From positions 1,511,404 to 1,575,403 of the forward strand of contig OY969110.1 in NCBI GenBank assembly GCA_963697995.1: DNA of 64,000 nt, written 5' to 3'. Shown piece by piece: positions 51,501-52,062 of the stretch. The position numbers were made by a program, and so were the translations under genes. The notes under the pieces were generated by a model, which was given only the letters and a program-made list of their open reading frames with translations, was not told where the DNA came from and did not search any database. Origin of the DNA: an uncultured Chlamydiae bacterium. GTDB taxonomy: Bacteria > Chlamydiota > Chlamydiia > Chlamydiales > JAJFMB01. How positions within the stretch are numbered: position 1 is the stretch's first letter; each line of letters begins with the position of its first letter.

Positions 51501-51780
51501 TAGTCGGCCCTGAAAAAAGTCCTCTCCAATAAAAAGTGCCCCTTTTGACAAAAAAGGCGTTTTACTGCTCACCAAACCTTGGCAAGGGGGGGAAGCGTTG
51601 TTCACTGCATTTTTTGTTACAAAAGGATCACCTTTTCTTTGGAGAGTGCGTGTTCCATCGCGAAATTTTTAAGCTTTTCTGATTGTCATATAATTAAACT
51701 TTGCAAAATAGGCTATGTCTCTCTTTCTCGTTAACTGCAAATTTTTCTCAAGGAACCCTTACTTTTTTAAGGGCCGACTA
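51501..51780 (+). mobile_element. MITE-like element, long form (280 bp), reference orientation
   Basis: TAGTCGGCCCTGAAAAAAGTCCTCTCC ... CTTACTTTTTTAAGGGCCGACTA. It begins 2 nt after the HECT stop codon. Confidence 0.85.
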
Positions 51781-51782
51781 GT

Positions 51783-52062
51783 TAGTCGGCCCTGAAAAAA
51801 GTCCTCTCCAATAAAAAGTGCCCCTTTTGACAAAAAAGTCGTTTTACTGCTCACCAAACCTTGGCAAGGGGGGAAGCGTCGTTTACCGCATTTTTTGTTA
51901 CAAAAGGATCACCTTTTCTTTGGAGAGTGCGTGTTCCATTCGCGAAATTTTTAAGCTTTTCTCATCGTCCTATAATGAAACCTTGCAAAATAGGCTATGT
52001 CTCTCTTCCTCGTTAACTGCAAATTTTTCTCAAGGAACCCTTACTTTTTTAAGGGCCGACTA
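51783..52062 (+). mobile_element. MITE-like element, long form (280 bp), second tandem copy
   Basis: Separated from the first copy by GT. Its last 3 nt (CTA) are the TAG stop codon of the minus-strand gene 52060-53172. Confidence 0.85.

Follow-up and report, generated by a model that had tools for sequence, protein, structure and literature searches.

The question raised by this locus is whether the long palindromic repeat that occurs twice in succession at positions 51501-52062 is a mobile element or a structural feature of the host chromosome. The DNA analyzed is a stretch of 64,000 nt from an uncultured Chlamydiae bacterium (hereafter the window, to which coordinates and copy counts refer). 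A repeat search, an alignment of eight sequences, and an nhmmer profile revealed eight members of the repeat family at five loci, comprising five long copies, two short copies, and one half-element, with no other match to the profile in the rest of the 64-kb window. The eight copies and fragments listed in an earlier first-pass annotation were all found at the positions given there. We consider that these sequences are probably a family of non-autonomous, non-coding mobile DNA elements of environmental Chlamydiae, resembling miniature inverted-repeat transposable elements (MITEs). The mobile-element interpretation offered in the first-pass annotation is favored by the non-syntenic positions of the copies, by a copy that abuts a truncated gene of an IS5-family insertion sequence (IS), by syntenic sites that are empty in relatives, and by junctions that coincide with stop codons. 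The members of the family are as follows.

22627..22908, minus strand: long copy of 282 bp, between the convergent genes 21187-22563 (+) and 22943-23743 (-)
30925..31071, plus strand: short copy of 147 bp, between the convergent genes 29948-30592 (+) and 31145-32470 (-)
51501..51780, plus strand: long copy of 280 bp, beginning 2 nt past the stop codon of the HECT-domain gene (49618-51498)
51783..52062, plus strand: long copy of 280 bp, head-to-tail with 51501..51780 through the junction TA-GT-TA
53472..53549, minus strand: half-element of 78 nt, made up of the left terminus and the left arm of hairpin 1 and truncated near the hairpin apex
58336..59021, plus strand: tandem duplication of two 340-bp units, each consisting of the final 58 nt of gene 57433-58386 and one long element
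58394..58675, plus strand: long copy of 282 bp with a degenerate right terminus (CAGGAACGACTA)
58733..59015, plus strand: long copy of 283 bp, the reference copy, in the second unit of the tandem duplication
59018..59185, plus strand: short copy of 168 bp, a single long hairpin, joined to 58733..59015 through TA-AA-TA

The reference copy is divided into the following parts.

58733-58752, plus strand: left terminal inverted repeat (TIR), TAGTCGGCCCTTAAAAAAGT
58753-58881, plus strand: hairpin 1, long and near-perfect, with a G-rich apex
58882-58996, plus strand: second module of 115 nt, hairpin-forming, just inside the right terminus
58997-59015, plus strand: right TIR

Alignment of the window copies shows that their ends read TAGTCGGCCCT(G/T)AAAAA...TTTTT(C/A)AGGGCCGACTA, as first annotated. 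The full copies range in length from 147 to 283 bp, pairwise identity among the window copies is 88-96%, and a pattern representing the 25-nt core of the hairpin arm, AAAAAGTGYCCCTTTTRACAAAAAA, matches eight times compared with 0.00 expected from 100 shuffles. The TIRs of 19-21 nt, TAGTCGGCCCTKAAAAA(A)GT, are the most conserved part of the element and enclose a near-perfect hairpin of ~125 nt, to which the long form adds a second hairpin-forming module of ~115 nt. A folding check bore out the near-perfect hairpin that had been proposed for the short form, which forms a single long hairpin at -70.7 kcal/mol (z = -6.2); for the fold of the long form z is -4.3. The short copy at 30925..31071 has its left terminus mutated to TGGTCGG and lacks, relative to the short copy at 59018..59185, ~18 nt between two CTTTTTC repeats. 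The description of the long form as the short form plus a module of ~115 bp holds for the length difference of 115 nt, but the direction it implied, insertion of the module, is probably the wrong way round. Both out-group copies (in L003 and L006, described below) carry the second module, and the short form is therefore more likely the derivative, with the caveat that both of these copies were found through the right end of the module, an ascertainment effect. The G tract at the apex of hairpin 1 ranges from G6 to G10 among the copies (58480-58489, 58819-58829, 59104-59113, 51586-51592, and 51867-51872) and is absent from the L003 and L006 copies. This variation could reflect slippage or Nanopore homopolymer error; the source assembly is probably a Nanopore assembly, judging from its co-occurrence with Microflora Danica data, and differences in homopolymer length may thus be errors.

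The small open reading frames (ORFs) inside the elements are inconsistent from copy to copy, indicating that the element is non-coding. The longest of them (81 aa) has no homologue among 5.8 billion proteins and was useless as a probe for further copies. A search of Rfam 15 gave no match at the gathering score, the only matches being far-sub-threshold ones of the palindrome to microRNA models. Known functional elements were considered and rejected. An intrinsic terminator, that is a stem followed by a U-run, is represented by one weak site within an arm with no excess over shuffles, and the T-runs at element ends and junctions lie 5' of GC-rich stems, not after them. When the element and its 115-nt module were read as terminators or promoters, sites were likewise no more frequent than in shuffles, and none was conserved from copy to copy. 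An integron attC site was rejected because the GTTRRRY core is missing and no integrase was found among the scanned window ORFs, and a retron non-coding RNA because no reverse transcriptase was found among the same ORFs. Pfam scanning of 52 window ORFs detected no transposase, integrase, RAYT, or Y1 transposase domain, and the IS5-family transposase of L006 has no tblastn match in the window, which agrees with the first-pass statement that the window lacks a transposase. The general features of a MITE are nevertheless present, namely a non-coding sequence of less than ~500 bp with TIRs and multiple dispersed copies (eight at five loci in 64 kb), and insertion is indicated by the copy abutting the truncated IS5 gene and by absence at syntenic sites, with one junction being visible and the relatives being distant.

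The physical reality of the repeats in this genome is supported by the Logan assembly of sequencing run ERR11563597, in which the junctions of the element with the HECT gene (contig L002) and with the aconitase gene (contig L017) are reproduced with 100% identity, indicating that the elements are not an assembly artefact. Each of these contigs breaks off inside the repeat, past the gene-element junction. A further Logan contig (L001, with a RecD2-like gene) ends at window position 12808 within gene 12635-13642, where no repeat was noticed. The same run also contains a chlamydial metagenome-assembled genome (MAG), MFD00082.bin.1.23 from Microflora Danica (L003, L011, and L012), and one of the two copies of the family found outside the window lies in L003. 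This copy (L003 18702-18940, 239 bp, fold z = -9.2) has the same termini and the same two-hairpin architecture and is positioned between the convergent genes for an SNF-family symporter and a protein of 145 aa, with the symporter ORF terminating within the element terminus. The other copy is a complete long form at 9-291 of L006, a contig from the JGI metagenomes, and was the sole return of a scan with a pattern for the right end. ORFs that enter the element terminus read AGT CGG SCC TGA, encoding Ser-Arg-Pro/Ala and a stop (L003 18700-18714; L006 271-291), so that an interrupted reading frame is closed within 3-4 codons.

The long copies of the window are ~80-84% identical to the L006 copy and ~75-81% identical to the L003 copy. 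Orthologous proteins of the window and the L003 genome are only 40-75% identical (67% for the TLC protein), and the identity of the element between genomes is therefore above the expectation for vertically inherited intergenic DNA. Comparison of these sequences suggests either horizontal spread of the element or continuing activity of a shared autonomous partner. A family with ~80% identity in very divergent chlamydiae of one soil/sediment sample would be direct evidence of ongoing DNA exchange among environmental chlamydiae.

The distribution of the copies does not follow gene order. The element is absent from the syntenic intergenic regions of L005, L003, and L011. L005, the closest relative, which is ~76% identical at the nucleotide level and shares with the window the order aconitase, 306-aa, 189-aa, CitMHS, TLC, ..., 369-aa, carries no copy, and in the L003 genome the 3' ends of the aconitase gene and of the 370-aa gene homologue are tight and free of the element. 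The half-element at 53472..53549 is located between the 370-aa gene and the TLC transporter gene, a site at which L005 and L003 each carry two additional genes. An empty-site comparison in related strains had been proposed; it gave element-free syntenic sites in relatives, although these relatives are distant rather than at the strain level. The convergent spacer between the aconitase and 306-aa genes of L005 (892-1229) contains approximately four unrelated 91-bp tandem units, each with a terminator-like hairpin (AACCCTCTTTTTAAAAGAGGGCT) and a further copy of the gene's 3' end. This array is a different repeat in the same niche as the window elements.

The L006 copy directly adjoins a transposase ORF of the IS5 family, which is 282 aa long and matches positions 1-269 of the 289 in the NCBIfam profile transpos_IS5_2; its more than 100 homologues have 311 aa, 29 residues more. 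In an alignment with three intact ISs the homology runs to ...TTATTTAGTCG, after which L006 continues as the element terminus. The junction fits insertion of the element into another mobile element, as judged from this alignment. The L006 IS5 transposase was considered as the cognate enzyme of the element and rejected. The IS termini, GGCCTTGTAGGATAAGTC..., are unrelated to those of the element and the gene is truncated where the element begins, apparently interrupted by it, which makes the IS5 element the victim of the insertion rather than a partner. The IS itself (L006 271-1129; also L007, L008, and L009) encodes in its intact form a 311-aa transposase between termini of the GGCCTTGTAGGATAAGTC... 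type and has more than 4,500 homologues at E <= 1e-20, one of which is annotated from a Rhabdochlamydiaceae MAG; the left end of L009 has a duplicated terminus.

Two junctions in the window fall exactly on stop codons. Copies 59018-59185 and 51783-52062 both finish in CTA, and these three nucleotides are the TAG stop codons of the aconitase gene (59183-61120, -) and of the convergent 370-aa gene (52060-53172, -), respectively. In four relatives aconitase stops at the same ...I* position, whether by TAA, TGA, or TAG, so the simplest view is that the TA at this junction came from the host. The element core starts with G, and insertion at the TA of a stop codon thus recreates TAG without altering the length of the protein. 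The 370-aa gene, which lies between the inverted termini 51783/53549, was also considered as a transposase; it was rejected as a single-copy, syntenic, element-free gene in L005 and L003.

Not every copy arose by its own insertion. The 340-bp tandem duplication at 58336..59021, in which the first 152 nt of each unit are identical (58336-58487 and 58675-58826, 100%), takes in the end of the upstream gene, and one of the copies 58394 and 58733 must therefore derive from segmental duplication rather than transposition. The positions first annotated for these two copies are correct, but the copies are not separate insertions, both lying in the one duplication. The pair 51501/51783, with a period of 282 and 96% identity, may be a duplication or the result of two insertions.

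The sequences flanking the elements bear on the enzyme that would move them. Of the 10 left and 10 right ends, 9 in each set are flanked by TA, so the near-universal TA of the first-pass annotation stands, but its likeness to elements mobilized by IS630/Tc1-mariner transposases, which would duplicate only TA, is not supported: we regard such an assignment as rather unlikely, in view of 6-bp repeats at three loci and since neither the window nor the related loci examined yielded an IS630-family gene. In its favor are, in addition to the TA flanks, the two insertions at the TA of stop codons and the junctions of 51501-52062 (TA-GT-TA), where removal of two elements and two TAs restores a TAA stop codon for the 370-aa gene at the point where its product ends now. 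The Tc1 terminus, which we take to be CAGTGCTGGCCAAAAAG..., also looks similar, with GGCC-N-AAAAAG. The core GTCGG...CCGAC is, however, bounded by exact 6-bp direct repeats (TAAATA) at three loci, being without them at three others. Copy 22627-22908 has TATTTA (plus strand) on both sides, the 58733/59018 array (58733-59185) has TAAATA at all three junctions, and the L006 copy has TAAATA on both sides, where the intact IS target reads GCGAC-TAAATA-ATTTTT. The left junction of L006, GAC-TAAATA-GTCGG, is impossible from a single insertion that duplicates TA; if the copy represents a single insertion with a 6-bp duplication, the junction with the 3' end of the IS would be ...GCTGCGAC-TAAATA-GTCGG. 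At the aconitase locus, taking out the elements together with a 6-bp duplication brings back ATT TAA where the ancestral stop lay, whereas removal with a TA duplication gives ATT TAT TTA... and leaves the pre-insertion gene without a stop codon at the position where four relatives stop. The flank is moreover asymmetric (AAA-TA / TA-AAT), unlike the symmetric context expected at a mariner-type TA. Copies 30925 and L003 have no 6-bp repeat, and at the pair 51501/51783 the junctions are AAAATA, TAGTTA, and TAGATA, and there the stop codon is recovered better under the TA model. If the whole target were duplicated as 6 bp, a new copy of it would stand on each side of the element, which would explain the head-to-tail arrays. 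A more specific proposal can be built on this, in which the family is no IS630-type MITE but the non-autonomous form of an unrecognized transposon of environmental Chlamydiae with a 6-bp TAAATA-like duplication, and in which a self-regenerated target, arrays, landing on stop codons, horizontal exchange between chlamydiae of a common habitat or host, and breakpoints for rearrangement and for the uptake of eukaryote-like accessory genes are all parts of one system; taken as a whole, this proposal is doubtful and is put forward only tentatively.

The palindromes themselves are maintained, which introduces a different explanation. In a structural alignment of the five long window copies with the L006 and L003 copies, representing three independent lineages, the consensus structure keeps 94% of cells paired. 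Changes on both sides of a pair number 11, compared with 3.3 +/- 1.5 in column shuffles and 1-4 in slid-partner controls; they fall mostly in hairpin 1, and 8 of 10 pairs of the terminal helix (helix 1) are invariant across the three lineages. With three independent lineages only, these values indicate that the palindromes are maintained and do not tell selection on DNA from selection on RNA. A strand-specific RNA structure was rejected as a reading: in 8 of 9 copies folding is slightly better for the bottom strand, by a margin that is small and not decisive. Hairpins kept by compensatory changes across three lineages, the strict placement of the copies at 3' ends, at least one copy pair formed by tandem duplication that includes flanking gene sequence, and the different tandem hairpin repeat of L005 at the same aconitase/306-aa junction would all suit an immobile host element of 3' intergenic regions, such as an RNA-stability hairpin, a terminator, or a protein-binding site, inherited vertically and duplicated locally. 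We nevertheless find this explanation improbable. Synteny of positions is lacking among the window, L003, and L005, a truncated IS transposase gene adjoins one copy, the cross-genome identity (78-84%) is higher than expected of vertical intergenic DNA when proteins are 40-75% identical, and there is neither a canonical terminator nor an Rfam match. Still further from the data is an element resembling REPINs or PATEs, which a Y1 (HUH) transposase (RAYT or IS200/IS605 type) would move in single-stranded form, a reading that we judge to be very improbable, even with a hairpin-dominated structure and copies that are clustered, tandem, and extragenic. Long TIRs and flanking direct repeats are not features of IS200/IS605-type elements, which counts against this explanation. 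Repetitive extragenic palindromic (REP) sequences are RAYT-associated palindromes of 20-40 bp with a GTAG or CGTC tag (PMC3733652). The present termini read TAGTCGG with no GTAG or CGTC tag at the stem base, the elements of 147-283 bp with long TIRs exceed REP doublets, and no Y1 transposase domain occurs in the window ORFs, so membership in the REP/REPIN class was rejected.

Several observations weigh against the mobile-element interpretation that we prefer. The compensatory changes could also stem from selection for a structure, in RNA or DNA, that serves the host. The empty sites all come from genomes too divergent for alignment of intergenic DNA, with none at the strain level, and the L006 contig shows just one junction of the insertion. 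The window copies differ from one another by 4-12%, so that none is demonstrably recent, and the loci disagree on the target duplication. Neither an autonomous element nor a transposase associated with matching termini was found; the window ORFs include none, and the adjoining IS5 element of L006 has unrelated termini. The family is also rare, with 1 match to the right-end pattern in 241 million JGI metagenome records and no further copy detected by the nhmmer profile in ~120 kb of related chlamydial loci (L004, L005, and L011-L016). In addition, the hairpin-arm pattern has no match in GTDB species genomes or JGI metagenomes, a pattern too specific to the window given that the arm is not conserved in L003 or L006; scans of viral contigs with both terminus patterns returned one chance match inside a phage ORF, and a plasmid search for the element gave no match.

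For a mobile MITE-like family the sequence of events may be pictured as follows. A transposase encoded outside the window would recognize the conserved termini and mobilize the element in trans, by a cut-and-paste or a copy-out reaction, and its autonomous partner would be bounded by TAGTCGGCCCTKAAAAAAGT and its inverse. Integration would take place at AT-rich TA or TAAATA-like sites, at or just after stop codons, and copies would be tolerated with little harm in convergent 3'-3' spacers. Such sites are common at and just past stop codons, which would cause copies to accumulate in 3'-3' intergenic regions. After insertion, copies in the window have multiplied locally by tandem duplication and decayed by internal deletion or by loss of half of the palindrome.

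The surroundings of the copies agree with such a distribution. In the window an element is present at 4 of 8 convergent gene junctions compared with 1 of 44 other junctions (Fisher p = 0.0012), and of the remaining convergent junctions three are <=22 bp and one is filled by an unrelated tandem array. The first-pass description of the elements as clustered at effector genes is weak, since their neighbors include genes for aconitase, an Na/Ala symporter, the TLC nucleotide transporter, and the SNF symporter of L003. The robust pattern, and the better description, is that copies favor 3'-3' spacers between convergent genes and coincide with synteny breakpoints. Neither of the labels Inc-like and GNAT-like that had been attached to two neighboring genes could be confirmed, the genes concerned having no Pfam or NCBIfam match, and the orphan gene upstream of 22627 has no match in PDB sequences or NCBIfam. 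The window has a GC content of 39.9% and encodes a TLC ATP/ADP transporter, HECT-domain and UCH-domain (ubiquitin C-terminal hydrolase) proteins, and an LRR-kinase; the nearest aconitase homologues among those found are 75-78% identical.

Each element locus coincides with a break in synteny between the window and L011 and L003. The block containing the LRR-kinase and orphan genes (19229-22563) ends at copy 22627. In the window ~28 kb (31145-58386) lie between the DUF6268 and aconitase genes, a segment that L011 and L014 lack at this place and that has the only two short copies at its borders (30925-31071 and 59018-59185, in direct orientation). The L013 contig, in which a TGL-like gene follows aconitase just as it does in L011, also lacks the segment directly downstream of aconitase but stops short of any DUF6268 gene. 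In L003 the genes for the 370-aa protein and the Na/Ala symporter are convergent neighbors; in the window 20 kb separate them, and each has an element at its 3' end. As each element locus lies at a gene-order break or a block of eukaryote-like genes, the repeats could mark, and possibly cause, rearrangement. The aconitase/306-aa junction is shared with L005, which has no element there, and at least this junction is therefore older than the insertion, so that the co-location with breakpoints may reflect permissive sites rather than causation. The eukaryote-like genes are found at 19229-21055, 27269-28921, and 45048-51498 and encode an LRR and protein kinase protein, a UCH-domain protein, a 1440-aa orphan, and the HECT-domain protein; in the related MAG (L011) the corresponding region is otherwise collinear but has neither the LRR-kinase/orphan block nor the UCH gene. 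In practical terms, short-read assemblies break at repeats of this type, and gene callers can go wrong at 3' ends because of them.

Many bacteria are well known to carry small non-autonomous mobile elements. In the literature searched, no MITE described in Chlamydiae and no description of the present family was found, which leaves its first-pass designation as undescribed in place. The Correia elements of Neisseria (CREE/NEMIS) are small non-coding hairpin repeats with TIRs of ~20-26 nt and TA ends, and they occur as long and short variants differing by an internal block, in intergenic positions near genes and with no identified cognate transposase. The present family has the same build of a small hairpin, TIRs, and TA ends with long and short variants, but it belongs to a different phylum, its long form has two hairpins, and TAAATA repeats are found at half of its loci; its copies form head-to-tail arrays and are biased to 3'-3' convergent spacers rather than promoters. 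The terminal sequences of Correia elements are presumably unrelated to those described here. ERIC/IRU and YPAL of Enterobacteria are imperfect palindromes of ~127 bp or more in transcribed intergenic regions. They share with the present family the imperfect palindrome, size variants by internal blocks, and long RNA hairpins, but they have no sequence relation to it, and ERIC is distributed largely vertically within a family, in contrast to the non-syntenic distribution and the copy at a truncated IS gene observed here. RUP of Streptococcus pneumoniae, an IS630-related MITE, is likewise an element of ~100-300 bp with TA ends and TIRs for which trans-mobilization is assumed. The termini of RUP match those of the resident IS630-Spn1, whereas for the present family no matching IS was found and 6-bp repeats occur at three loci. 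Rickettsia palindromic elements (RPE), of 100-150 bp, are also palindromic repeats of an obligate intracellular lineage with no known transposase. They typically lie in frame inside protein-coding genes; the present elements are located after or exactly at stop codons and, unlike RPE, when they enter an ORF they end it after 3-4 codons through the TGA of the terminus. The nearest report found is the newly recognized IS982-derived MITE of a Cardinium endosymbiont, which has a clear parental IS in the same genome and is restricted to one strain (PMC9769881). Like the present family, it resides in a host-restricted intracellular bacterium and interrupts other mobile elements (PMC9769881). The family described here differs in that no parent IS was found and in being common to at least two, probably three, divergent sources.

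Other repeats are present in the window. The unrelated tandem array at 39401-40100 (~8 x 84 bp or 4 x 175 bp, 87-89% matches) fills the gap where an MFS transporter gene (37845-39383) and an ABC-2 permease gene (40067-40927) converge, and its edges repeat the ends of the adjoining genes. A tandem duplication of ~1.69 kb at 32293-35724 (88-99% identity) contains two NodZ-like fucosyltransferase genes (32530-33402 and 34222-35091), and the N-terminus encoded by the ORF at 33488-34162 resembles the start of the neighboring Na/Ala symporter.

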